Assembly (NCBI GenBank): GCA_963706575.1
Contig: CAVPNL010000004.1
Span: forward strand, 160,001-224,000
Length of the DNA stretch: 64,000 nt
From: an uncultured delta proteobacterium
GTDB taxonomy: Bacteria; Desulfobacterota; Desulfobacteria; Desulfobacterales; JAHEIW01
Direction: 5' to 3'
A program made the position numbers and the translations under genes. The notes beneath the pieces were generated by a model that had not been told where the DNA came from, ran no database searches, and saw nothing but the letters and a program-made list of their open reading frames with translations. Position 1 is the stretch's first letter. Each line of letters opens with the position of its first letter. Below, one piece after another: positions 2,425 to 22,665 of the stretch.

Positions 2425-3627
2425 ATGGGATCTGCTATGAAGCCGTATGCCGCATCACCACCTTTGGAATCAAAAAAAAGTCCCTCCATCAACCATGAAC
2501 AAATCGAGCGACTGCGCCGAAGTCTCGATGCCAAAGCGCGCGATTTGTTGTTGTTCGATCTGGCCACCCAGACCGGTATGCGCCTAAAAGATTTGTTGCG
2601 TTTGAAGGTGAGCGATATCCATAGATTATCCATTGGCAAAGCAATCCCGGCCACGCGTGCGCTAAACTATCTGGAACAACCCGCAATCCTCACCGAGACG
2701 CTGGATCGCACCATCAAAAAATACCTGGCGACGGATGGAAAACGGCCGGATGACTATCTGTTTCAATCTCGCAAAAGAGCACGGCCCCTAAATCTGCCCA
2801 GCGCCTCAAATATGATCAGCGGCTGGTTTCAAACAGCGGGAATCGATGGTTTTAGTGGTGCCCGGGGGCTCAACAAGATTTGGCGGCTGTACTATAAAGA
2901 TGCGGTCGAAAGAACCAAACAGAAGGCGGACAGAGATCCGATTGGTACCCTGGAGCCGATTAAAACAGCCACCCTGCAGGAAGTTGTCTACCAGCGGTTG
3001 TTAAAGGCCATTATTGCAGGCCGAATCCCGCCGGGTGAACAGCTCGTTCTCGGTAAGGTTGCCGCACAATTTAAAGTCAGCCCCATGCCGGTGCGCGAGG
3101 CCTTTAACCGGTTGGCTGAGGCGGGGGTTATCACCTTGCAGAAAAAGAAAAGTGCGCTAATCAACACCTTGTCCAAAGAGGATTTGATGGAAATTCAGCA
3201 GATTCGCATCAATCTGGAGACCATGGCAGTGGAGCAGGCCTGCCGATCGATGGACACACAGACTTTGGATGATTTGCAGGTGCTGCATCAGGCGTATCTC
3301 GAAGCGTTCCGCGTCTTCAGAGTGGAGGAGGTTCTGCGGCTCAATCGCCAGTTTCATTTCACGATCTATTCCGCCACCCGCATGCGGCGGCTAATGTACA
3401 TCATCAACGGCTTGTGGGATCAGATCAGTCCCTATTACCATATCCTTCTGCGAAAAAAGGAGCACCTCTATACGGAAAAGCACGCCGACACCCATGGCCA
3501 GCTGTTGGAGAGACTGAAACAGAAAGACATTGAAGGCAGTGTTCAGGCCCTGCGCGCCGATCTGCAAAACGCGGCGGAGTTAATCATCACCGAATTTGAA
3601 AAGCATCGCGAGTTCGAAATCATTTAA
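2425..3627 (+). CDS. GntR/FCD family transcriptional regulator with an N-terminal degenerate tyrosine recombinase domain
   Basis: N-terminus RDLLLFDLATQTGMRLKDLLRLKVSDI...DYLFQSRK resembles phage integrase box I. C-terminus LQEVVYQRLLKAIIAGRIPPGEQL...VSPMPVREAF is a GntR wHTH followed by an FCD domain (LNRQFHFTIY). Confidence 0.85.
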   Translation: MGSAMKPYAASPPLESKKSPSINHEQIERLRRSLDAKARDLLLFDLATQTGMRLKDLLRLKVSDIHRLSIGKAIPATRALNYLEQPAILTETLDRTIKKYLATDGKRPDDYLFQSRKRARPLNLPSASNMISGWFQTAGIDGFSGARGLNKIWRLYYKDAVERTKQKADRDPIGTLEPIKTATLQEVVYQRLLKAIIAGRIPPGEQLVLGKVAAQFKVSPMPVREAFNRLAEAGVITLQKKKSALINTLSKEDLMEIQQIRINLETMAVEQACRSMDTQTLDDLQVLHQAYLEAFRVFRVEEVLRLNRQFHFTIYSATRMRRLMYIINGLWDQISPYYHILLRKKEHLYTEKHADTHGQLLERLKQKDIEGSVQALRADLQNAAELIITEFEKHREFEII

Positions 3628-5212
3628 TTTCGCCGGTTTTCATATAATTGGTAATCCTGCCGGCTTTGTAAGCCTGATTGAAAGCCGCAACCACACCCGG
3701 ATCAAACTGGGTACCATCGCCCTCATTGATAATTTTAATAATGATGCCGTCCTCCATTTTTTTACGGTAGGCGCGGTCGGAGGCCATGGCGTCATAGACA
3801 TCGGCCACCGATAAAATGCGGGCCAAAAATGGAATATCCTGCTTCCTGATCCCATCGGGATAACCGCTGCCATCAAAACGTTCATGGTGAGAGCGAATAA
3901 TTTGCCTTTCTTTTTCCCACAAACCCAACTGCTCGAGAATGTTGGCCCCGATGACCGGATGATCCTTGATTTTTTCGAATTCATCGTCTGTCAATCTGCC
4001 GGGTTTGAGCAGAATGTCATCTCTGATGCCGATTTTGCCGATGTCATGCAGATGGCCGGCAAAATTGAGAATATCCAGCTCTTCTTTAGAGCATCCCAGT
4101 TGCTTTCCCAGTATGATGGACAGCCCGGTAACGCGACTGGAATGCTGCCGCGTATATAAGTCCCTGGCCTCCACTGCTTTTACGAATGCATAAAGGGTGG
4201 CAAATAGATTCTCATAGATATTTTCATAGAGGGCCAGGTTTTCAATGGCCTGGGCTGCGCTCTGGGCTAAAAAAGAAAGATAATAAAGATCTTTTTCGGC
4301 AAAGCGCTTTTGCCCTTGATCCACGATGGCTGTGATCACGCCGAAAACCTTATCCCGAATTTTTAAAGGCACAATCATGGCCGAGTTGATTTCAGCCGGC
4401 AAACCGTTGCTTGCGGTATGTTCAGAGATCAATAGCGGTATCTGATCCGAGACGACTTCCATTATCAGTGCGGCGCTTAAGGGCTCCAGGTCGGTGGTGG
4501 ACGGCGTCTGTGACTCCTCATAAGTGGTTTTCCAATTCTGGGATGCAGCCGGACCGACAGATTCAGCTGATGATGATGACACCTTGATCGGTTCCTCAAC
4601 CGTTTCATTAATTACATAAAAGTCGGTATAATCGGCGCGAGAGATGTCGCGGGCAATATCAACGGCCCGCTTGAACACGTCGGTGCTGGAACTGATGGCC
4701 GTAAATTTTTTCATTATGTTGTTGAGGATGTTCAGTTCTTTAACTTTGACCAGTAACTCCTGATTTACCTTCTGAAGACGCTGCTTGCCTTCAACCTCCT
4801 TTTTTAAAAGAACATTTTCCGCAAATATTTTGCGCTGCTGCATCACGCGCTGCACGCACAATTCCATCTGTTTCAAATTGACCGGCTTGATCAAAAAATC
4901 GACCACCCCGTTTTTAATGGTCTGGATGGCGTTTTCCAGTGAAGGATAACCGGTCATAATGATCACCGGCATGGTATTATCGTGGGTTCGAATTCTTTCG
5001 GCAAGTTCTATCCCGTTCATAACGGGCATATTGATATCGGTAAAACAGCAGTCTATGGTTTCGCCCGCCAGGAGTTTAAGCGCCTCAGGGCCTGTTCTGG
5101 CGGTCAGGGTCTGGTAACCCTTGCGCTGAAAGTACTCGGCGGAAACGCTTAAAATACTCTCTTCATCATCGACAAACAGGATGGTTTGTTTTTTTTCAAT
5201 ATCCATTGGCAA
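3620..5212 (-). CDS. Response regulator receiver + GAF + HD-GYP c-di-GMP phosphodiesterase
   Basis: ILFVDDE receiver domain; LHDIGKIG and HHERFDGSGYPDG. Confidence 0.92.
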   Translation of the reverse strand: MPMDIEKKQTILFVDDEESILSVSAEYFQRKGYQTLTARTGPEALKLLAGETIDCCFTDINMPVMNGIELAERIRTHDNTMPVIIMTGYPSLENAIQTIKNGVVDFLIKPVNLKQMELCVQRVMQQRKIFAENVLLKKEVEGKQRLQKVNQELLVKVKELNILNNIMKKFTAISSSTDVFKRAVDIARDISRADYTDFYVINETVEEPIKVSSSSAESVGPAASQNWKTTYEESQTPSTTDLEPLSAALIMEVVSDQIPLLISEHTASNGLPAEINSAMIVPLKIRDKVFGVITAIVDQGQKRFAEKDLYYLSFLAQSAAQAIENLALYENIYENLFATLYAFVKAVEARDLYTRQHSSRVTGLSIILGKQLGCSKEELDILNFAGHLHDIGKIGIRDDILLKPGRLTDDEFEKIKDHPVIGANILEQLGLWEKERQIIRSHHERFDGSGYPDGIRKQDIPFLARILSVADVYDAMASDRAYRKKMEDGIIIKIINEGDGTQFDPGVVAAFNQAYKAGRITNYMKTGEIK

Positions 5213-5421
5213 AAATCTAAAGCGTGCCTTTTAGTCCGGTTAAAATTTCAAAAGATAGCAGTCCCCTGACTGCCAAAGCCACTGAGTGTGATATCGACAT
5301 TTTGGGCAAAAACTTTAGCCACCGGCAGAAGCGAATTTGCCGATAGATATTGCCTTATTTTTAGATTCATGACAGAAGACGACTTTGAAAAAGCGCTTTA
5401 CGATAAAGCGACACTGATATA

Positions 5422-12513: not shown

Positions 12514-13232
12514 GCGCGCTCATCCATTTTGCTGTTCTCAAAATTGTCACAAATGACACGTCGAACGTTTTCCATTAGCGCTTCTTTTGTCTCACGGGTA
12601 TATGTCGAAGTTCCGATCGGCTTGTGGATAACCATGCTGACACGACCCGGATAGACCCGAAACCTGCCCTTGGGCATTATCGCGCGCGTCCCGGTTATGA
12701 CAACCGGAACAATCGGGACGCCGGAATCAATCGCCATAACAAACCCCCCTTTTTTGAAAGGCCGGATTTTACCGTCCCGACTACGGGTGCCTTCCGGAAA
12801 AATGAGCACCGATACGCCGCTTTTAATCTTGTCGGCCGCCACTTTAAGGCTCTCAAAAGCCGATTCGCGGTGATATCGGTTAATACTGATATAACCGGCC
12901 TTGCGCATGGCGCGCCCGAAAACCGGAATTTTAAAAAGCTCCATTTTGGCCAGCCATCGAAACTGAACCGTAAGATGCCCCAGTAAAACCGGTATATCAA
13001 AATTACTCTGGTGATTGGGCATATAAATATAGGGGCTCGAAGGGTCGATGTTGGACAGTCCTTTAACGCTAACTTTAATCCGGCTGACCATCAGAATTGA
13101 TCTGCCCCATAACCGGGCAATTTTGTGCAAGGGATTGCCCGATCGGACAAAAAACGAAAGCACGATGACCAGTGTTCCCGCCACCAGCGTGGCAAAAAAA
13201 ACCCAGATCGTTATGTATAGGGTCCGAATCAT
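12507..13232 (-). CDS. plsC: 1-acyl-sn-glycerol-3-phosphate acyltransferase
   Basis: NHQSNFD and FPEGTRS motifs. Confidence 0.9.
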   Translation of the reverse strand: MIRTLYITIWVFFATLVAGTLVIVLSFFVRSGNPLHKIARLWGRSILMVSRIKVSVKGLSNIDPSSPYIYMPNHQSNFDIPVLLGHLTVQFRWLAKMELFKIPVFGRAMRKAGYISINRYHRESAFESLKVAADKIKSGVSVLIFPEGTRSRDGKIRPFKKGGFVMAIDSGVPIVPVVITGTRAIMPKGRFRVYPGRVSMVIHKPIGTSTYTRETKEALMENVRRVICDNFENSKMDERAC

Positions 13233-13573
13233 GTTGCGATGTCCAATTTTTCAAATATGGCATCCACAACCTCCATAATCCAGATCCGTTGTTCCCTTGA
13301 GGCATATCCGATACAGGCGCATCGGATTCGGTTTTTGGTGCGAACTAGCAATTCAATGGCAAAACGTTTTTCCTCCAACTCAATGGCAAAGTAAAAGGGC
13401 TGGCAATCGGTATGCGCATGTTGTATCTCCGTCAGCACCTCTGCTGCTAACGGTACCCAATAGACACCGCCCATTTCTACCGGGCCATAAGATGCATCCA
13501 GATATTGCTGAATTTTATGATGATCCTCGGGCCGAATTTCATCGATCACATATTGCTTCATGGCAGATGGCAA
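13229..13573 (-). CDS. Hypothetical protein
   Basis: 114-aa ORF overlapping the plsC start; true start may be MKQY at 13561. Confidence 0.7.
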   Translation of the reverse strand: MPSAMKQYVIDEIRPEDHHKIQQYLDASYGPVEMGGVYWVPLAAEVLTEIQHAHTDCQPFYFAIELEEKRFAIELLVRTKNRIRCACIGYASREQRIWIMEVVDAIFEKLDIAT

Positions 13574-13898
13574 ATGTTATATGACATGCTGGGTTAGCGC
13601 TCCCCCTTGCGAAATCGGCGGATTGGATTTTTGCACCGCAAGCGCTAAACGCCAAGGGCGCAGGCTTGCCTGAAATGCCGCAGGCGGAACGTGAAAAAGG
13701 GCGTGGAGCATCCAGTATAGATGCATTTAACTACCATATTTTGCGCATACAGGCAAGGTGTAGATAAGGCGACAAGCTCCTATTTTTAATGATAAATATA
13801 ATCTTCTTGGTTCAAAAAAGGAACGGGCGTTAAGGGACGCAGGTTTGAGTTACCATGGAGAATTCAAAAGGCGGGCAGTCGACGTATTCATAAAACAG

Positions 13899-13944
13899 GA
13901 CCCCCTGCCCCGGCTTCCGAAATCGGATCTCCGGGCAGGGGGTC
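13899..13944 (-). terminator. Hairpin/terminator downstream of the ferredoxin gene
   Basis: Inverted repeat gaccccctgccc ... gggcagggggtc followed by ctgtttt on the minus strand. Confidence 0.55.
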
Positions 13945-13952
13945 AAACCGGA

Positions 13953-14141
13953 TTAGGTTTCTTCAACGACAATAGCGCCTTCTTCACAGACCTCGACACA
14001 GCTTTCGCAGCCCAGACATTCTTCGGCGTTGACGGGCACGGATTTGCCATCTTGCATTTCAAAGACTTCAACCGGGCAAACATCCACACATTCTTCACAG
14101 CCAGCGCATTTTTCTTCGTCGACGATAGGATTAAAAGCCAT
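13953..14141 (-). CDS. 2[4Fe-4S] ferredoxin (62 aa)
   Basis: CAGCEECVDVCP and CLGCESCVEVC; start at MAFNPIVD with AAGGAG RBS. Confidence 0.93.
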   Translation of the reverse strand: MAFNPIVDEEKCAGCEECVDVCPVEVFEMQDGKSVPVNAEECLGCESCVEVCEEGAIVVEET

Positions 14142-14417
14142 TATATACGTCTCCTTTCGAATTAGGTATTTATTAAGGTGATGGAAACCCACCTTGGATT
14201 CTGCTTAAGGGGAAAGTCAATATACCAATTGGAAAACCGAGTCAAGTCCTGATAACAATTTTTATCTAAATTGAGCGTTTCAAATTTTAAAAAGAGATTA
14301 TTGCATATTATATTCAATGAATTCTGTCGATTTATATTTCTAATATTTGAAAGGCTCAACTTAGATTTTGGTAAATTTTAATAAATTTGTATTTATCAGG
14401 TATTTCGTGTTTCGTTT

Positions 14418-15452
14418 TTAGTGTTTGGTGTTTAGCGTATCGATGGATCGCCGATCGATGAGCCCGATCAGGGTGTTGCCGGCCTCAGCGCTTTGATCGG
14501 GAATGAGTGGATCGATATTCTGATCTTCGAAAATCGGCTTAAATGTATCCACCGGGCCTTGGCCGGACACCATATATAATGTCAGCCCAACGTTTGAGCG
14601 CTGATCCTGTGGCAGGGGCATATCACCGAAGGGGTCCTCAGCTGCAGCACCCCGGTTTTCGATAAGCTGTTTTATCTGTTTTAAAAACGAATCCCGCCAG
14701 ATGCTGGCGCAATCATCTTTCGTATTCGTGACCGGCAGTCCTTCAAATTGAATAACCTTTTGCGCTGCAGCCAGGTTTTCAATCACGTGATTGAAAACCG
14801 CTGGGCTGCTGGTCACAAAAAGCCCTGAATCAACCGGGTCGCTCATAAACAGGCGCAGCCACGCCTGTAATCGGTCTGGTGCCATATATTCAGTGGGATC
14901 TTCGATTCTGATTTCAGCGTTAAGCGGGGTAACCGGTAAACCATTTTCCCTTTCACCACTTATTTCTTTGAGCAGATCACGCGAAAGCCGATCATTAACA
15001 CCAAGGTCTCGATTTAACTCGGCACTCTGCCGGTCAAATTCCTGGGCAAAATCAAGAAAGACCCGTGCGCAAAACAATGGATCGAAATCCGCTTCGGCAG
15101 ATGCAATCCGGCTGCTTTTTTTTACATCCGAGACAATCCGGGAAACTGTAGATTCACCAAAACAGGGAATGGCCCCCTGCTGCCCCCAAAAAACCGCCGT
15201 TTTGAGGTTCTTACTGTCATCGTGCAGGCCGGCAAACGCCCGTAATTCTTTTGCCATCTTTGCAAGGGTCTCATCTTTCGTCTGCACGGGCACGCGGACC
15301 TCCATCACATTTTCCTCGATCCAGGGCTGCATCTCTGAAGGTAATTTTCGGCCCGAGGGCTGATAGACGGTAAACTGCTTAAAACAGGCGGCCAATGTTT
15401 CCGCCACCCATTGGGGCACGTAGGTATAAGGGAAATAGATCGGTTTTACCAT
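14418..15452 (-). CDS. Hypothetical protein
   Basis: 344-aa ORF with a GGAG RBS; no recognisable motif. Confidence 0.75.
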   Translation of the reverse strand: MVKPIYFPYTYVPQWVAETLAACFKQFTVYQPSGRKLPSEMQPWIEENVMEVRVPVQTKDETLAKMAKELRAFAGLHDDSKNLKTAVFWGQQGAIPCFGESTVSRIVSDVKKSSRIASAEADFDPLFCARVFLDFAQEFDRQSAELNRDLGVNDRLSRDLLKEISGERENGLPVTPLNAEIRIEDPTEYMAPDRLQAWLRLFMSDPVDSGLFVTSSPAVFNHVIENLAAAQKVIQFEGLPVTNTKDDCASIWRDSFLKQIKQLIENRGAAAEDPFGDMPLPQDQRSNVGLTLYMVSGQGPVDTFKPIFEDQNIDPLIPDQSAEAGNTLIGLIDRRSIDTLNTKH

Positions 15453-15511
15453 TTTCGGTTCTCCATCCTAAAGGTGTTCAACTTCAATCAAAATTAGGTG
15501 TCAGTCAACAG

Positions 15512-15681
15512 GTTCAATGGATCACGGTTCAGAGGTTCAGGGGCTAGATAACTGAAGATAGATTTCAGAGGTCAGATAGTAGGGTCGGCCTCCGTGCCGA
15601 CCTCTGAACGGCGGGCGCAGAGGCCCGCCCTACTTTTGAACCCAGAACCTCTGAACTTAGAACCCTGAACCTTTGAACCTT
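15512..15681. repeat. GTAG REP-like element (15579-15633) inside a heptamer inverted wrapper (GGTTCAG/CTGAACC)
   Basis: gtagggtcggcctccgtgccgacctctgaacggcgggcgcagaggcccgccctac; nearly identical to 52424-52478. Confidence 0.8.
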
Positions 15682-15687
15682 TAATCC

Positions 15688-17961
15688 TTAGCTGTGATCC
15701 TGCACGATGATCCCCCGAGATCTGAGTTCGTCTCTGAGTTTATCCGCGAGATCCCAATTTTGCTCTGAGCGGGCCTTATCTCTTTGGCTCAGCAGCCGTT
15801 GAATTTTTGGGTCAGCGTATTCATCAAAAAAATTAAACTGATTCAAGACCGTATCGATACTTCGAAACCCATTAATCATCTTTGAAGCGTCTTGTGGGTG
15901 CAGTTGGTTTTTTTGGACGAGGATATTCACTGTTTTAACAATTGTGAAAACCGTGGCCAGGGCTGCTGAAATATTTAAATCATCATCCATGGCGCTCATG
16001 AATCCGTTTTTAAGATCGTAGAGTAATTGTTCCAGTTCCGGGTAGGGCCGGCCCTGCTTCACACAGCGCAGATTGTACATACAGCGATCCAGCCGTTCAA
16101 GCGAACGCATGGCTTCGTCCAGGCGTTCTTTTGAAAACGAAATCGGTTTGCGATAGTGACTGGACAGCAGCCAAAAACGGATGACCCGGCCGGAATAGCC
16201 CATATTCATTAAATCCGCAATTGTCAGTCCGGCTGAGCGTTCATCCAATTTTTTCCCGTCGATGAGCACCCGATCGCAGTGTACCCAGAACTTCGCCAGG
16301 GGTTTCCCGGTCATGGCGACGGCAATGGCATTTTCATTTTCGTGGTGTGGAAAAACCAGTTCTCGGCTGCTGGTGTGGATATCGAAACATTCGCCTAAAT
16401 ATTTCATGGACATGGCTGCCGATTTAATGTGCCAGGAAGGCCGTACGCTCCCCCAGGTGGTTTTTGTGAAGATACCCCTTTTTAATTCTGAAAGTTTGGA
16501 TCGTTTAAACAGGGTGAAATCCCGCGGGTTTTGTTTTTCATAGTCATCCAGATCAACCGTGGCGCCCACTTTTATCTTGTTGATATCAATCCCGGAAAGC
16601 TGTCCGTAGTCATCAAGGCGTGAAATGTCAAAATATAATGATCGCAGTTTTTCATAGGCAACGCCTTTCGTAACCAGCCTTTCACCCAGGGCCACCATAT
16701 CGTCAACATGATCGCTGGCCTGGGCATAGGAAGTGGCCGGATTTAGGCCTAAAACGGACAGATCTTCTTTGAATTGAGAAATATTGGCTTCCGTAAATTC
16801 CTTCAGATCGACATTGGCTTCTTCGGATCCGCGGATGGCCTTGTCATCAAGATCATTGATATCGGTCAAATGATTGACCGCGTAACCGCGGTTTTCAAGG
16901 TAACGGCATAGCAGGTCGGCAAAGACAATGCGGCGCAATTCCCCCAGATGGATGCGGGTGTGTGCGGTGGGGCCGCAGGAATAAACGTTAACTTTTCCCG
17001 GGGTTCGAGGCTCAAACATCTCTTTTTTGTGAGACAGGCTGTTGAATAATTTCAGGGTAACCGCTTCGCGCACCGCAAAAAGCGAGGTGCTTAAATAACG
17101 CTCGCCGTTGTCCGGGAATAACACGACCAGGGTGCCGGCCGCCATTTTGACTGCAACCCTGCAGGCAGCGACCATGGCCGCACCGCTGCTCATGCCGACA
17201 AATATGCCTTCTTCCCTGGCCAGTCGTCGTGCCATTTCGTAAGCGTCTTCATCGGCAACATTGAGCTTTTGATCCAGGCGTTCTTTTTCAAAGATCTCGG
17301 GGCAATAGGCTTCTTTCATATTTTTTAACCCCTGGATCTTGTGGCCCAGATAAGGTTCCACCCCGATAATCTGGATGGACGAATCGTATTCCTTCAGCCT
17401 TCTGGAAACGCCCATTAAGGTCCCGCTGGTTCCCAGGGTGGCCACAAAAGCGGTAACCTTGCCGTCGGTTTGCTGCCAGACCTCTTCAGCCGTACCATAA
17501 TAGTGAGCCTTCCAGTTGGCTTCATTGTTAAATTGATCGGGGAGAAAATAGGTGTTCAGGTTTTCACGGGCCAGCCGGTAAGCCTCCTCAATGGCTCCAT
17601 CGGTGCCTAAATGCCCCGGCGTTAAAAGGATGTCGGCTCCCCGGGCCTTTAGAATCTTTTGTCGTTCGATGCTGACCGCATCGGACATCACCAGCAGCAA
17701 CCGGTATCCCTTGACCGTACAAACCAGGGCCAGGCCGATCCCGGTATTTCCGCTGGTGGGTTCGATGACGGTTTTTTGCGGTATCAGCTCTCCGGATTTT
17801 TCGCCAGCCTCAATCATGTAAAGGGCGGCGCGGTCCTTGACGGACCCGCCGGGGTTAAAACACTCGAGTTTGGCGAGCATCTTTACAGCGGGATTCGGAT
17901 TGAGTTTTTTGATTTCAACCAGTGGCGTATTGCCAATGGCATCCAGGATAGAATGACCCAT
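15688..17961 (-). CDS. Fusion of a PLP-dependent cysteine synthase (CysK/CysM family) and a cysteinyl-tRNA synthetase-like domain
   Basis: N-terminal GNTPLV, NPGGSVKDR, PTSGNTG, GTSGT; C-terminal YSCGPT, FPHHENE, MDDDLN, ADKLRDEL. Confidence 0.9.
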   Translation of the reverse strand: MGHSILDAIGNTPLVEIKKLNPNPAVKMLAKLECFNPGGSVKDRAALYMIEAGEKSGELIPQKTVIEPTSGNTGIGLALVCTVKGYRLLLVMSDAVSIERQKILKARGADILLTPGHLGTDGAIEEAYRLARENLNTYFLPDQFNNEANWKAHYYGTAEEVWQQTDGKVTAFVATLGTSGTLMGVSRRLKEYDSSIQIIGVEPYLGHKIQGLKNMKEAYCPEIFEKERLDQKLNVADEDAYEMARRLAREEGIFVGMSSGAAMVAACRVAVKMAAGTLVVLFPDNGERYLSTSLFAVREAVTLKLFNSLSHKKEMFEPRTPGKVNVYSCGPTAHTRIHLGELRRIVFADLLCRYLENRGYAVNHLTDINDLDDKAIRGSEEANVDLKEFTEANISQFKEDLSVLGLNPATSYAQASDHVDDMVALGERLVTKGVAYEKLRSLYFDISRLDDYGQLSGIDINKIKVGATVDLDDYEKQNPRDFTLFKRSKLSELKRGIFTKTTWGSVRPSWHIKSAAMSMKYLGECFDIHTSSRELVFPHHENENAIAVAMTGKPLAKFWVHCDRVLIDGKKLDERSAGLTIADLMNMGYSGRVIRFWLLSSHYRKPISFSKERLDEAMRSLERLDRCMYNLRCVKQGRPYPELEQLLYDLKNGFMSAMDDDLNISAALATVFTIVKTVNILVQKNQLHPQDASKMINGFRSIDTVLNQFNFFDEYADPKIQRLLSQRDKARSEQNWDLADKLRDELRSRGIIVQDHS

Positions 17962-18004
17962 ACCGTAAACCTATAAGGAGAGTGCGTCCCGCTCTGAACG
18001 GGAT

Positions 18005-18155
18005 TCAAAGTGATCTAAAATGCCTAAAATTAAACAGAAGAATCAATCCATTTTATTTTAATCCTCACGCAAAAAGACAAGCGCGCAAAGATGCTAAGGA
18101 ATAAAAAATAAAACTTTGCGGGCTTTGCGTGAGACCTAAAACTTTAGGCACTTTT
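18005..18155. repeat. Nonamer (CTAAAATGC/GCATTTTAG) inverted element with a nested CTCACGC...GCGTGAG element (18064-18133)
   Basis: aagtgatctaaaatgcctaaaatt ... ctcacgcaaa...ctttgcgtgag ... ctttaggcactttt. Confidence 0.7.
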
Positions 18156-18211
18156 GGTCCCTTTGTTGATCACATCTATTATTTTAAGAAATTTCAACTG
18201 CAACAATATTT

Positions 18212-18859
18212 TTATCCATGCAAACATTGCTTAAGAAATGAAGACACGATCTTGCGCATCGCGGCAAATACCTGATCCTGGGTTTGGGCCGCGTCGATAA
18301 CTCTGAACCGATCCGGTTCAAGACGGGCCAGCTCAAGATAGCCGGCCCGGACTTTTTCATGGAATGCCACCGCTTCGGCTTCAAAACGACTTTCATCCCC
18401 GGATCGCTGTCCGTTGTTTAACTGTTGCCAGGCACGTTTCAGACCCACCTGCGGCGAAAGGTCCAGCAGCAAGGTGATATCAGGCTTTAGATCGTCAAAC
18501 AAAAGTTGATGTAGTTGCCCGATCAATTCAATGCTCAGCCCCCTGGCAAATCCCTGATAGACCAGAGTGGCATCAAAATAACGATCGCATATCACTGTCT
18601 TGCCTTCCTTTAACGCCGGTCTGATAAGCTCATTAATGTGCTGGGCGCGATCGGCCATGTATAAAAGCAATTCCGCCAGCGGCTCCAGGGCATTATTCGC
18701 TGGATCCAGCAGAATCGATCGAATATTTTCTCCGATCAGGGTGCCACCCGGCTGCCGGGTCGCAACACATTCGATTCCCCGGTTTTCAAAAAATTCCACC
18801 AGCCGACAGATCTGGGTCGTTTTACCCGAACCTTCGATACCTTCCAGTGTGATGAACAT
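18212..18859 (-). CDS. tmk: Thymidylate kinase
   Basis: FITLEGIEGSGKTTQ, VICDRY, YQG, PDITLLLD. Confidence 0.96.
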   Translation of the reverse strand: MFITLEGIEGSGKTTQICRLVEFFENRGIECVATRQPGGTLIGENIRSILLDPANNALEPLAELLLYMADRAQHINELIRPALKEGKTVICDRYFDATLVYQGFARGLSIELIGQLHQLLFDDLKPDITLLLDLSPQVGLKRAWQQLNNGQRSGDESRFEAEAVAFHEKVRAGYLELARLEPDRFRVIDAAQTQDQVFAAMRKIVSSFLKQCLHG

Positions 18860-18919
18860 GAGGTTAGTCCGTTGATGTTGCTCAATTATGCGCTTGAAAG
18901 CTTCTTAAAACTACATCAA

Positions 18920-19110
18920 AGAAAGTGCGCTAAAGTTGGAAGTGATCTAAAGTGACTAAAGTTAAGGAATTCTACCCGTCGAGAGCCTCCCGTCGAGAGC
19001 CTCTGGGTCGAACGACTGGGTCGAACGATCATTTTTAAAATAAAAGATAGAGCGCAGCGAAACCATAATTTTAGGCATTTTAGATCATTTTAGGCACTTT
19101 AGGCACTCGT
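18920..19110. repeat. Nonamer inverted MITE-like element with a doubled internal module
   Basis: Homologous to 50402-50563, 47452-47553 and 18005-18155. Confidence 0.75.
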
Positions 19111-19137
19111 TATTTTTGCGCTTTTGAACGTAATCCA

Positions 19138-19926
19138 CTATTTCCGAGAAAGCCTCTCCTCTTTTGATCGGGTCACTAATTTCCAGCCTTTCAGGTTTTC
19201 GAGCGCCTGATAATCGGTCTGATCGCATTTTATGGGTGTAATCGAGATAAAATCTTCACACAAGGCTGAGCCGTCGATATCGGTGGACTTGCCCGCCGGC
19301 AAAGAATCACATCCCTGCCAGTAATAGGTTCGCTCACGAGGATCCATCCGTTTATCAATATATTCAGGGAAAAAATCCATATCGAGTCGGCTGATGCGGA
19401 CGCCGGTAATTTCTTTTAAGGGTCGGTTGGGAATATTGACATTTAGAAATGTTCCAAACGGAAGCCCGTTGGCGTACACATCTTTTGCCAGCGCTTTGAC
19501 AAAAAGTGCCGCCTCGTCATAATTTTGCACGTCTCGACCATGGATGGACACGGCAATGGCCAGAATACCGTATAATGTCGCCTCCTTGGCAGCCGCAACG
19601 GTTCCGGAATAATTAATATTTATGCCGACATTCGCTCCGGGATTAATACCTGAAATCACCATATCCGGTTTGCTATCCAGGATTTCCAATATCCCCATCT
19701 TGATACAATCAGCCGGTGTCCCTGAGACAGCATAACCCTGGAACGCCTTATTGATCGAAACCTTTTGTACACGCAGCGGCTTATTTAGGGTAATACCGTG
19801 GCCAACGGCACTCTGTTCACGATCCGGCGCAATAATCGAAACGGAATGCTGCGATGCCAGATGTTTGTAGAGAGACTCCAATCCGGGAGCATAAATGCCA
19901 TCATCATTGGTTAGAAGAATATTCAT
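19138..19926 (-). CDS. surE: 5'/3'-nucleotidase SurE
   Basis: ILLTNDDGI, GTPADC, SGINPGAN, YSGTV. Confidence 0.96.
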   Translation of the reverse strand: MNILLTNDDGIYAPGLESLYKHLASQHSVSIIAPDREQSAVGHGITLNKPLRVQKVSINKAFQGYAVSGTPADCIKMGILEILDSKPDMVISGINPGANVGININYSGTVAAAKEATLYGILAIAVSIHGRDVQNYDEAALFVKALAKDVYANGLPFGTFLNVNIPNRPLKEITGVRISRLDMDFFPEYIDKRMDPRERTYYWQGCDSLPAGKSTDIDGSALCEDFISITPIKCDQTDYQALENLKGWKLVTRSKEERLSRK

Positions 19927-20346
19927 AATGAATCACACAAATTGGGTTATGGGAACTTTGGATAACACAAATCTGTGAAAGGAAACATCAGCGGGATCGG
20001 CAGATCGGCCTTTAAACCCACCCGGGCATAAACCGGGGCAGGTATCGGTTTTGCGCCGCACGCAGCGCCGAATTTGCCTGAAAACGAATTGAATTGGCCA
20101 TCTGTATCGGGTTGATGGTTAAATTTTAATTTAGGGGCCATAACGATTTGCGCTTAATTGACTTTCCGGTAATATCTTGACATATTTAACTGGTTTGAAT
20201 TTATATCCCAAATTTCAATCATATTCAAGAAATATGAATGAATTCCGGCTTTATCGGTTAAACTCACGCACCTCAATGGGGATCCTAAAAATGATCAGAA
20301 CGGTAGAGTTCACCCCAAGCTCAATGAAAATTGCAGGAGGGCCGGC

Positions 20347-22665
20347 TTGCAGCTGAGACGATTCAAACGCCTCTTTCAACTTCTCATTTCAAAGCGGAGC
20401 AGACGGACGGTCTTTTTAGGCTGTTTGATTTTGGGTGCTCTGGCAGATTCGCATCCGGCAGGCGCCCAGAGTTTAGAGCTGCAAAAAGAAGGCATTTTAA
20501 AAGACGACGCCCGGTTGCCCTGGGTGCTTGAAGCCGATGAGTTGACCTACGATCATCAGCTGGATCAATATATCGCCCGCGGCAATGTTCAAATATCAAA
20601 AGCCGATAAAAAGCTGACGGCTGATTATATCCGCTACGATCACAAAAACCAGCATGCTTTTGCCCGGGGCAAGGTGGTTCTGACCGTCGGTCAGGACATT
20701 CTTTCCGGCAGCCAGCTGGACATTGACCTCGAAAAACAGGTGGGCTGGATAGAAAATGCCTATTTATTCCTGAAAGAAAACAATTTTCATATCACCGCCG
20801 ACAAAATTGAAAAAACCGGCGAAAAAACCTACCGCATTGACCGCGCCACCCTCACCACCTGCGACGGCCCCAAACCGAGCTGGAAAATCAGCGGCAAAGA
20901 TGTCAAGATTAAAGAAGATGGATCCGGCACCGTCAAACACGCCGTCGTGCGGGCAAGAAGGGTGCCGGTGCTGTACTCACCCTACTTTTACTATCCGGCG
21001 AGAGAGGATCGACAGACCGGTTTTCTGATGCCTGAATTGGGCGAAACCGGGCGCAAAGGTTATCTGTATAACCAGCCCTTTTTCTGGGCCATCTCAGAAA
21101 GTGCCGACGCCACCTTTTACGCCAACTACATGTCAAATCGCGGCATAAAGCCGGGAGCTGAATTCCGCTATATCTTAAATGAGCGCTCCCGGGGCACCTT
21201 CATGCTGGATGGGTTTAACGATGACAAAACCGATGAAGGCGGCCAATCCAGCGATGATTACGGATATCGGGACGCCGGTGAAGAAGTCTTGCGCACCAAT
21301 GAAAACCGCTACTGGTTTCGCATGAGTCATCATCAGGCAGCGCCCCTGGGATTTTTTGCCAAATTGGATTTGGATATCGCCAGCGATCAGGATTACCTGC
21401 GTGATTTTCGGGATGGGCATATGGGCTATGACGATACCAATGACTATTTTCGCACAGCATTCCACCGGCAACTTAATGACTATAATGATCCTGTCCGAAC
21501 AAACCGTTTGAACCTCAATCGGCTCTGGCCAAAATTCAACTTCAATTTCGAGCCGCGCTGGAACGATGACACCAGACGGGATATCAATACCGGTGAAACC
21601 CTCCAAAGACTCCCGTTTATGAGCTTTGATGGTGAAAAACAAAAACTTTTGGCCTCGCCGTTTTATTTTGATTTAGAATCTCAATATGACTATTTTTGGC
21701 GCGACAGCGGCACCCGGGGCCAGCGGTTTGACGTGCACCCCAGGTTTTACATACCCTTTCGAGTTAATAAATACGCCACTGTTGAACCGTCGGTCGGGTT
21801 AAGGGAGACCGGCTACCGCCTGGATAAGAGCACTTTCGACGATCAGCCCGATACCAATCAATGGTCACATCGCGAACTTTTTGACACGCGTTTGGAACTT
21901 TTTACAGAACTTGAAAGGGTCTTCAACTTAGAGGATCAGCTCTTTGAAGGCGTCAAGCACCGCATTCGCCCCCAGATTACGCATGAATTTATACCGGATT
22001 CCAAGCAGGGAGACTTGCCCCGATTCGATACGATCGACCGAATCGATGAAACCAACAAAATTACTTATTCCCTTATCAATACATTGACATCCAAATTAAA
22101 AACCGCTGGGCCAAAGACAGCAGGACCGGAACTGGCAAGCAAACACGGCAGTCAACGGCAAACGACGGTCGATTATAAATATAACGATTTTTTCCGCTTT
22201 GAGGTCGAACATGGCTATGACTTTGAAAAATCAAAAAGACCGTTTTCACCGATTTCAGCCAAGCTGGATGTCTCCCCGGTTAAATATATCTGGCTGGATG
22301 CGGACGCCCAATATTCCGTCTATAAGAACGAATTTCTGCGTCACAATATTCAGGGATTACTGTGGGACAACCGCGGCGACGAGTTATATGTGGATTATCG
22401 ATATGAGAAAAAATCCGAGGAAACCGAAGTTACAGAAAATATCCAGTCCATTACAGGCAAACTGAGGGTGCAATTAAGCGATTATCTCTCGGTTAGCGCT
22501 GAAAATGTATATAACTTTGAGACCGACCAGCGAATTCGAACCGCCGGCGGATTCACGTATACGGCGCAGTGTTGGTCATTTGATTTTAAATATACGGATG
22601 AGCCCGATGACTGGAAAGTGAGTTTTAAAATCGCCTTGACCGGACTGGGAGAAATTGAGTATTAG
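20347..22665 (+). CDS. lptD: LPS-assembly protein LptD (start uncertain)
   Basis: OstA-like N-domain, TTCDGPKPSW, RQTGFLMP, beta-barrel ending in YTAQCW...LTGLG. Confidence 0.88.
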   Translation: MQLRRFKRLFQLLISKRSRRTVFLGCLILGALADSHPAGAQSLELQKEGILKDDARLPWVLEADELTYDHQLDQYIARGNVQISKADKKLTADYIRYDHKNQHAFARGKVVLTVGQDILSGSQLDIDLEKQVGWIENAYLFLKENNFHITADKIEKTGEKTYRIDRATLTTCDGPKPSWKISGKDVKIKEDGSGTVKHAVVRARRVPVLYSPYFYYPAREDRQTGFLMPELGETGRKGYLYNQPFFWAISESADATFYANYMSNRGIKPGAEFRYILNERSRGTFMLDGFNDDKTDEGGQSSDDYGYRDAGEEVLRTNENRYWFRMSHHQAAPLGFFAKLDLDIASDQDYLRDFRDGHMGYDDTNDYFRTAFHRQLNDYNDPVRTNRLNLNRLWPKFNFNFEPRWNDDTRRDINTGETLQRLPFMSFDGEKQKLLASPFYFDLESQYDYFWRDSGTRGQRFDVHPRFYIPFRVNKYATVEPSVGLRETGYRLDKSTFDDQPDTNQWSHRELFDTRLELFTELERVFNLEDQLFEGVKHRIRPQITHEFIPDSKQGDLPRFDTIDRIDETNKITYSLINTLTSKLKTAGPKTAGPELASKHGSQRQTTVDYKYNDFFRFEVEHGYDFEKSKRPFSPISAKLDVSPVKYIWLDADAQYSVYKNEFLRHNIQGLLWDNRGDELYVDYRYEKKSEETEVTENIQSITGKLRVQLSDYLSVSAENVYNFETDQRIRTAGGFTYTAQCWSFDFKYTDEPDDWKVSFKIALTGLGEIEY

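Follow-up and report, generated by a model that had tools for sequence, protein, structure and literature searches.

To our knowledge, few cases are known in which a non-catalytic paralogue of an aminoacyl-tRNA synthetase controls the supply of an amino acid, HisZ and the HisRS-like domain of GCN2 being examples. HisZ is a paralogue of histidyl-tRNA synthetase (HisRS) that regulates the ATP phosphoribosyltransferase HisG. Here we describe a gene whose product joins a pyridoxal phosphate (PLP)-type cysteine synthase to a half resembling cysteinyl-tRNA synthetase (CysRS) in which the catalytic motifs are eroded. The gene lies in a 64,000-nt stretch of contig CAVPNL010000004.1 (the window, to whose whole length all coordinates refer) from an uncultured delta proteobacterium of the order Desulfobacterales. 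Under CysRS, the accessible part of a review of synthetase paralogues published in 2022 names just two, CysRS* and MshC (PMC9437257). No account of a protein fusing cysteine synthase to CysRS turned up in a literature search that took in neither subscription papers nor supplements; within the literature searched, the suggestion of an earlier sequence-only reading of this DNA, that the fusion belongs to an undescribed system, holds.

CysRS* is, like the fusion, an extra CysRS paralogue found in the Desulfobacterales (Mukai et al. 2017). In the accessible text of that study it is without the anticodon-binding domain, its gene follows selC*/selB*, and a tRNA-charging role is proposed for it (PMC5389517). 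The fusion, in contrast, has the anticodon-binding domain CysS_C, lacks the ATP motifs and is encoded between tmk and a gene we call unk344, and so does not show the traits given there for CysRS*. MshC, the mycothiol Cys ligase, is a CysRS paralogue that works outside translation; it is ATP-dependent and is described in the accessible part of the source as tRNA-independent (PMC2922099). The fusion, however, scored 170.1 bits against the MshC family TIGR03447, the cut-off of which is 485.1. On the PLP side, cystathionine beta-synthase likewise has a CysK-fold PLP core followed by a C-terminal domain, which is regulatory; that domain is a Bateman pair and not a synthetase, and the fusion reached 297 bits against the TIGR01137 cut-off of 510.

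The fusion is encoded on the minus strand at 15688..17961 as a single open reading frame (ORF) with an ATG start, specifying 757 aa and followed by a stop codon. Pfam placed PALP at residues 5-284 (4.8e-68), tRNA-synt_1e (PF01406) at 316-618 (6.8e-76), DALR_2 at 654-706 and CysS_C at 718-756. To the CysM/CysK-type PLP domain we assigned residues 1-298 (17068..17961), on the evidence of PALP, TIGR01136, Protein Data Bank matches to CysK1 (2q3b) and CysM (2v03) and the fold of 2bhs. It is followed on the same strand by the Rossmann/CP catalytic body (16108..17016), whose ATP motifs are degenerate and which matched the solved CysRS 8qhp at E 2.6e-92, by the DALR_2 helical domain (15844..16002), and by the CysS_C anticodon-binding domain (15694..15810), placed both by Pfam and by alignment to E. 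coli CysRS. The whole fusion scored 365.7 bits against the NCBIfam cysKM family TIGR01136 (curated cut-off 344.15), 359.2 bits against the cysM equivalog TIGR01138 (under its cut-off of 394.2) and 346.7 bits against the cysS family TIGR00435, a marginal pass of the cut-off of 340. Both the cysKM and the cysS score are far above chance. The ORF call, Pfam and NCBIfam thus agree with the sequence-only reading that one 757-residue frame holds intact PLP motifs and a full-length CysRS body, and by these profile matches the protein is classified as a CysM-type PLP cysteine synthase with a C-terminal 455-residue CysRS paralogue.

An AlphaFold2 model of the whole fusion, built from a 45-row alignment, had a mean predicted local distance difference test score (pLDDT) of 88.1 and a predicted TM-score (pTM) of 0.72, with low confidence in the KMSKS-equivalent loop and in residues 466-477. 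By Foldseek, the PLP part superposed on 2bhs_B (TMt 0.97, root-mean-square deviation 1.6) and 2q3b (TMt 0.92), and the C-terminal part on 8qhp_A (TMt 0.92) and on the tRNA-bound CysRS 1u0b_B (TMt 0.84 over 471 columns). None of the solved chains among the Foldseek matches listed spanned both halves (TMq 0.37-0.52).

The PLP half carries SVKDR at residues 40-44 (with the catalytic Lys42), TSGNTG at 69-74 (preceded by P68) and GTSGT at 177-181, which we take to be the PLP-binding Lys motif, the Asn loop and the Gly-rich phosphate loop, respectively. Across 81 diverse fusions, the wide set of our motif survey, TSGNTG and GT[ST]GT were present in all 81 and S[VI]KDR in 80. The sole exception, which reads SIKFR, is locus L070, a second and divergent fusion copy in genome G092. 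The PLP half looks like an intact CysM/CysK-type synthase, and O-acetylserine (or O-phosphoserine) sulfhydrylase activity is predicted for it.

The CysRS-like half keeps CGPT at residues 329-332 (16966..16977, minus strand) and, by motif position, a stretch at 16333..16383 (minus strand) that holds FPHHENE (residues 537-543, 16333..16353). In the residue alignment with 8qhp, the other catalytic motifs are replaced. HLGE stands in place of HIGH/HIGN (HLGH in 8qhp) at residues 338-341 (16939..16950), SWHIKSAAM in place of GWHIECSAM at 509-517 (16411..16437), with Ser514 at the position of the zinc-ligand Cys, DIHTSS in place of DIHGGG at 527-532 (16366..16383, within the stretch just named), and KLDER in place of KMSKS at 571-575 (16237..16251), with Glu for the second Lys, all on the minus strand. 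Neither the HIGH nor the KMSKS ATP-binding signature is present. The motifs were found where the sequence-only reading had placed them, to within one base. The zinc ligands, which in E. coli CysRS we take to be C28, C209, H234 and E238, correspond to C329, S514, H539 and E543, so that three of four are kept; W510, H338, G340 and K571 are retained as well.

These replacements are shared by the close homologues. Among 150 sequences of at least 67% identity, HLGE was found in 106 and HVGE in 23, SWHIKSAA[MI] in 80 and SWHIQCAA[MI] in 23, DIHTSS in 110, FPHHENE in 140, and KK[LV]DE in most. Recent decay of the CysRS-like half, the outcome that the sequence-only reading had set against its own proposal, is therefore rejected, and since the degenerate motifs are common to close homologues the decay is old and fixed at the level of the order. 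In the wide set the fourth position of HIGH is N or H in 17 of the 81 fusions and E in 40, and the second Lys of KMSKS is present in four; among the zinc ligands, C329 is kept in 71, C514 in 67 (Ser in 9), H539 in 80 and E543 in 62. The clade of the order reads HxGE / SWHIQC / DIHTSS / KKVDE, with the KMSKS region (type I sites 572-577) among its least conserved parts. Several families outside the order are near-canonical (HLGN / GWHIECAAM / DIHTSG / KMSRS), the Desulfatiglandales fusions read DLVQ, and Desulfocarbo reads DLGL / KKISR; in P0127, P0129 and P0130, which are 50%-cluster representatives, even CGPT and the HH pair are gone. Sites switched to another fixed residue in the degenerate clade include G509S, E513Q (K in the window's genus), Q546I, R468T and P591G. 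By motif comparison, erosion of the ATP motifs differs from lineage to lineage, and members outside the order are graded.

The opposite end of the CysRS-like half has been kept. In E. coli CysRS, Arg427, Trp432, Asp436 and Arg439 are the anticodon-contacting residues targeted in the accessible part of a published study, with Arg427 bonding G34 (PMC13449415). In the alignment to 1li5 and 1u0b, R731, W736, D740 and R743 of the fusion fall on these four residues. Among the 81 diverse fusions, position 731 is R in 79, 736 is W, F or Y in 80, 740 is D in 80, and 743 is R in 79, and the zinc ligands are less conserved than these anticodon readers. The most eroded members read RFDR (P0127), KYDR (P0129) and RFDK (P0130) at the four positions; the catalytic-domain scores of P0129 and P0130 were down to 63-85 bits, while CysS_C gave 23.2 bits for P0130, against a cut-off of 23, and 20.9 bits, weakly below it, for P0129. 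Of the 81 sequences examined, no full-length one has shed the C-terminal domain. Relative to canonical CysRS (TIGR00435; E. coli 1LI5/1U0B; closest solved structure 8QHP), the fusion thus shares the full fold of Rossmann/CP, DALR and anticodon domain, together with CGPT, WH, FPHHENE and the four anticodon readers, and differs in having other residues at HIGH, KMSKS, DIHGGG and one zinc Cys, in its place behind a PLP enzyme and in its faster evolution. In these residue comparisons the anticodon readers are retained preferentially over the ATP motifs, and the CysRS-like half probably binds tRNA-Cys without charging it.

The rest of the genome (5.67 Mb in 25 contigs, 91.8% complete) contains the separate canonical cysS for which the sequence-only reading had proposed to look. 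This stand-alone gene on contig C6 (450613-452067) encodes 485 aa with HIGN / GWHLECSAM / DIHCGG / KMAKS and scored 445.5 bits against TIGR00435, its nearest family being NF011108. A cysK adjoining a cysE-like gene is located on contig C15, apart from the fusion. With a separate cysS and a separate cysE-like/cysK pair, the fusion is an extra paralogue of both enzymes, and, judged by the canonical motifs of the gene on C6, it would not be the genome's presumed enzyme for charging tRNA-Cys. The genome has one tRNA-Cys(GCA) gene, and no tRNA genes were found in the window. ARAGORN also called a tRNA-Pyl(CUA) at C15:118432-118505 and a tRNA-Sec(UCA) at C3:141925-142022.

We lean, with modest confidence, towards the reading that the CysRS-like half is a pseudo-synthetase that docks tRNA-Cys on the fused cysteine synthase and so couples the synthase to the state of the tRNA-Cys pool. 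With HLGE, KLDER and the lost zinc Cys, this half would no longer activate cysteine with ATP, and the separate cysS would carry out the housekeeping charging of tRNA-Cys. The pseudo-synthetase would dock tRNA-Cys through its intact anticodon readers, and this binding would be what selection maintains. Uncharged tRNA-Cys might then signal cysteine demand to the synthase, in the manner of HisZ-HisG or of the HisRS-like domain of GCN2. By this analogy, sensing tRNA-Cys demand would be the most economical use of a tRNA dock on a cysteine synthase, with a regulatory effect expected on the PLP domain. HisZ, as presented in the accessible parts of two papers, is a synthetase paralogue tied to the enzyme that makes its amino acid (PMC9734150, PMC10795190). 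The fusion is alike in this, a synthetase paralogue that has lost its catalytic motifs and shares one ORF with the synthase. The likeness would be in working only, since the fusion has a class I CysRS domain and is not a member of the HisZ family: HisZ belongs to class II, forms a separate subunit and acts through the amino acid, whereas the fusion is covalent and its anticodon reader is the part best kept.

The distribution of the fusion was examined in 151 genomes of the order, where full-length matches, counted by hand, were those running from residue 4 or before to residue 753 or beyond in one open frame. A full-length fusion was found in 120 of these genomes at 53-100% identity, and matches that were incomplete or split, in most cases where a contig ends, in 10 more (G001, G045, G065, G043, G006, G038, G123, G109, G144 and G020). 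In G065, residues 1-500 and 501-756 are far apart on one contig, and in G123 there is an internal gap (392-475) inside one frame. Some genomes hold two copies, as does G125 (L061 and L062, both 57% identical to the query). Across the phylum, 160 of 401 genomes matched at E<=1e-130, and among the matches listed most were full length, at 45-68% identity; wholly negative families include f90 (0/11), f100 (0/11) and f101 (0/10). Close relatives, from Desulfobacterales metagenome-assembled genomes (MAGs), are named 'cysteinyl-tRNA synthetase', 'cysteine--tRNA ligase' or 'cysteine synthase' in the databases.

The order uses two types of stand-alone cysS, one TIGR00435-type and the other, the own type of the window's genome, NF011108-like with a DVHHTNE motif. 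The own type was found in 36 of the 151 genomes, including the window's, and the TIGR00435 type in 101 at E<=1e-135; at these thresholds at least one type is present in 136 genomes, with both in one (G056). Outside the order, cysS and the fusion occurred together in all eight Desulfobacterota genomes tested (5/5 and 3/3), the stand-alone protein scoring 544-577 bits and the fusion 351-463.

Selection on the two halves was estimated as the ratio of nonsynonymous to synonymous substitution rates (dN/dS) in 10 gapless close relatives, the window and nine metagenome loci, as medians over 44 of the 45 pairs (41 for residues 619-757). The values were 0.085 for the PLP part and 0.111 for the whole CysRS-like part, within which residues 299-618 gave 0.094 and residues 619-757 gave 0.151. 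The CysRS-like half is under purifying selection. Mean identities set this beside the stand-alone enzymes of the same genomes: in 18 genomes with a TIGR00435-type cysS (153 pairs) the PLP half averaged 69.9%, the CysRS-like half 52.2% and the stand-alone CysRS 60.5%, and in nine genomes with the own-type cysS (36 pairs) the figures were 73.9%, 56.9% and 72.3%. The CysRS-like half is constrained, yet more loosely than a working synthetase.

These rates bear on the alternative that the CysRS-like body is a structural relic, kept for folding, solubility or oligomerization of the PLP domain and binding neither tRNA nor cysteine in vivo. A relic would be expected to outpace the PLP domain and the stand-alone CysRS alike in its evolution, as this half does, and to let its catalytic motifs drift by lineage, as seen in HLGE, DLVQ, DLGL and QVAT. 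A scaffold would also fit a contact between the halves, which counts for the tRNA dock as well. When the two halves were co-folded as separate chains, the contact score was 0.52, the best of three controls scoring 0.01, and the runs agreed in at least 90% of contacts with a partner pLDDT of at least 85. Of 157 solved complexes 116 attained the contact mark, as did 2 of 215 mismatched pairs; only 18 of the 157 complexes, and both of the passing mismatches, attained it with a score of 0.60 or less. The model lends weak support to a fixed contact. A pure scaffold, however, would not keep four distal surface residues of the anticodon domain in 79-80 of 81 members while its active site erodes, it would not be expected to hold dN/dS at 0.15 even for residues 619-757, and no full-length member of the 81-sequence set has dispensed with the C-terminal domain. 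We consider a relic unlikely.

Several observations nonetheless weigh against a tRNA-docking pseudo-synthetase. That the CysRS-like half evolves faster than the stand-alone CysRS alongside it could reflect relaxed constraint just as well as a new role. The fusion is missing from 21 of the 151 order genomes (two with zero match are 64-65% complete), so roughly that number manage without it. In canonical CysRS (n=67), 100 sites are at least 90% conserved, and only 47 of these are held at that level among the 54 sequences of the degenerate clade. HIGH still has its first His and its Gly, and KMSKS its first Lys, which leaves room for residual or altered nucleotide chemistry. The predicted contact between the halves is as weak as described above. 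A search for a leader RNA (T-box or riboswitch) found nothing above the Rfam gathering score in 13000-20500, the three matches there having E 0.19-0.44.

The ancestry of the CysRS-like half was inferred with FastTree from 152 CysRS domains, re-rooted on HIGH-type bacterial representatives; a midpoint root fell inside the long-branched fusions and was replaced by this rooting. One clade holds 80 of the 81 fusions (support 0.986), with the own-type stand-alone cysS as sister group. Nested within the clade are the degenerate forms of the order, with a mean branch from the family node of 1.28 versus 0.54 for the near-canonical forms. The same clade includes four proteins of stand-alone length, P0135, P0138, P0141 and P0157 (460-484 aa), with partly altered motifs (HIGL/HIGT/HIGS; KMSRS/KMARS or K-ITAE), which may be unfused members or fragments. 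The remaining fusion, P0124, is the one with fully canonical motifs and groups with the canonical P0160 (support 0.973); as an ancestor of the family it was rejected, being an independent fusion. Its relatives are in DPANN archaea, and at locus L239 of a Nanobdellota MAG (3001-5295) the fusion is a single frame with canonical motifs, and the 1.4-Mb genome gave no other CysRS match at E<=1e-30. The DPANN proteins resemble ours in having the PLP domain first and CysRS second; they differ in their independent origin, in keeping every motif canonical and, at L239, in supplying the only CysRS match of the genome. In Candidate Phyla Radiation (CPR), Bdellovibrionales and Bathyarchaeia loci (listed with L239 as L241, L243-L246 and L250), cysK and cysS are adjacent in separate frames. 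The independent DPANN fusion and these adjacent pairs indicate that the cysK-cysS link arose more than once. From the motifs, the link would appear to be a working bifunctional enzyme in small genomes and a redundant paralogue that has lost catalysis in the Desulfobacterota.

That a fused CysRS can be intact gives some substance to a further alternative, in which the protein of the window is still an enzyme, by aminoacylation or another adenylate-forming activity, and channels newly made cysteine onto tRNA-Cys. Such coupling is plausible in principle, the independent DPANN fusion being its genome's only CysRS found, and the fusion of the window passes the TIGR00435 cut-off (346.7 vs 340) with H338, G340, K571, W510 and three of the four zinc ligands in place, while relatives outside the order with HLGN / GWHIEC / KMSRS reach 422-463 bits. 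Against this, charge is reversed at both phosphate-contacting positions (N/H to E, and the second K to E), the window's genus has lost the ligand equivalent to Cys209, few regions vary more within the order's clade than that of KMSKS, and a stand-alone cysS is available here and in 136 of the 151 order genomes. We regard continued catalysis as improbable.

The sequence-only reading had also suggested that the half may bind either tRNA-Cys or cysteine. The first of these gains direct support from the kept anticodon readers. The second, taken as a sensor in which free product bound in the pocket would regulate the synthase by feedback, tRNA playing no part, has a precedent in the accessible accounts of HisZ, which works this way with histidine (PMC9734150, PMC10795190), and the pocket residues C329, H539, E543 and W510 are present, as are for the most part all four zinc ligands in the wider family (62-80 of 81). 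In the window and its genus, however, SWHIKSAAM has Ser for the second Cys and Lys for the preceding Glu, and with Ser at the Cys209 equivalent a zinc-thiolate cysteine sensor is weakened for this protein. Zinc ligands being less conserved than the anticodon readers, and the retention of an anticodon-binding domain being left unexplained, we give a cysteine sensor little credence.

The last alternative draws in the neighbouring gene unk344 (14418..15452, minus strand), which lies 235 bases downstream of the fusion on the same strand and encodes 344 aa of no known family. In a synteny set of 76 related loci, many with a 1.5-kb flank or cut by contig ends, unk344 is a same-strand neighbour of the fusion at 52; it lies downstream at 43, from the order, and upstream at 9, from families beyond it. 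A profile built from 19 relatives found it in 92 of the 401 phylum genomes, and by hand comparison it is present in 86 of the 160 genomes that carry the fusion and in 6 of the 241 that lack it, figures in which related genomes are not independent and fast-evolving members may be missed by the profile. The 19 sequences share an N-terminal P-I-Y-F-P-F-T-Y stretch and invariant F7, P8, A136, D140, W198 and T214. No Pfam or NCBIfam family matched unk344, its relatives are named only 'hypothetical', and an atlas search had no usable match. The model, a beta-sheet core with a helical insert at residues 58-205, is of moderate quality (pLDDT 71.9, pTM 0.75), with no Foldseek match in the PDB at E<=0.001 and a best Z of 4.2 in a wide fold search. 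HUP-type nucleotide-binding folds (8x7f, 3guz, 7lhr and 1v47; Z 3.5-4.1) gave the only fold-search rows that span both ends of the model, and were set aside as too weak to use. We treat unk344 as a candidate partner of the fusion.

In this alternative the chemistry is templated by tRNA: the PLP domain would act on the 3'-end aminoacyl group of tRNA-Cys, in a SepCysS-like or a persulfide or S-sulfocysteine reaction, possibly with unk344. The kept anticodon readers, the CysM-like PLP domain (359 bits against TIGR01138, with CysM among the best solved matches) and the link to unk344 by adjacency in two gene orders and by co-occurrence all suit it. Carried furthest, it would have the dock present the 3' end of tRNA-Cys to the CysM-type PLP site for sulfur chemistry on a tRNA-bound cysteine, persulfide or S-sulfocysteine, a bacterial, fold-type-II analogue of the SepCysS route with unk344 as third component, a proposal we hold improbable, as we do the alternative as a whole. 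Neither SepRS nor SepCysS was found above cut-off in the genome, which is 91.8% complete (best 28.5 vs 380.65 and 55.5 vs 365.25 bits), so that there is no known source of mis-acylated tRNA-Cys, and the tRNA-linked formation of cysteine suggested by the sequence-only reading is unsupported; unk344 itself has no recognizable family or fold.

Upstream of the fusion on the same strand are tmk (thymidylate kinase, 18212..18859, minus strand, 250 bases away; Pfam 2.6e-50) and surE, and downstream of the fusion are unk344, a small ferredoxin-like ORF, a 114-aa ORF and plsC. The small ORF (13953..14141, minus strand) encodes 62 aa in which two CxxCxxCxxxCP-like cysteine clusters, read from the sequence, are ferredoxin-like. 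In the synteny set tmk is upstream on the same strand at 41 of the 76 loci (within 500 bases in 37), all within the order except one weak match (L081); the tmk linkage is order-level synteny only. A promoter scan gave counts no higher than in shuffled sequence. The GC hairpin at 15610-15629 is not a terminator of the fusion, since its T-run is on the plus strand. In the spacer between fusion and unk344 are degenerate tandem repeats (7-8 of 15 bases) at 15637-15691, and contigs from RNA libraries stack at 15610..15691 to a summed depth of up to 77, probably from a repeat shared with other organisms. RNA contigs from four libraries in four studies cover most of the fusion gene at 90-99% likeness, and in one RNA-library contig tmk and the fusion are linked across a shorter spacer. 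As evidence of transcription these contigs were rejected, their word shares being small (0.08-0.14), their source being relatives, and DNA carry-over being possible.

New in this analysis are the mapping of the anticodon residues, the graded motif series with its phylogeny, the independent DPANN fusion, the two stand-alone cysS types of the order, the dN/dS values and the conserved neighbour unk344. The fusion gene is near-core in the Desulfobacterales and common across the Desulfobacterota. Because several sources label it 'cysteinyl-tRNA synthetase' or 'cysteine--tRNA ligase', it affects how often cysS is counted in sulfate reducers and how their cysteine metabolism is reconstructed. If a tRNA-docking pseudo-synthetase is the correct reading, the fusion would be a class I pseudo-synthetase joined to the maker of its own amino acid, with the anticodon reader as its best-kept site, and would offer a direct link from tRNA to biosynthesis that can be tested in bacteria. 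The series from the intact DPANN form through near-canonical members to the eroded ones is a natural experiment on a synthetase turning into a pseudo-enzyme.

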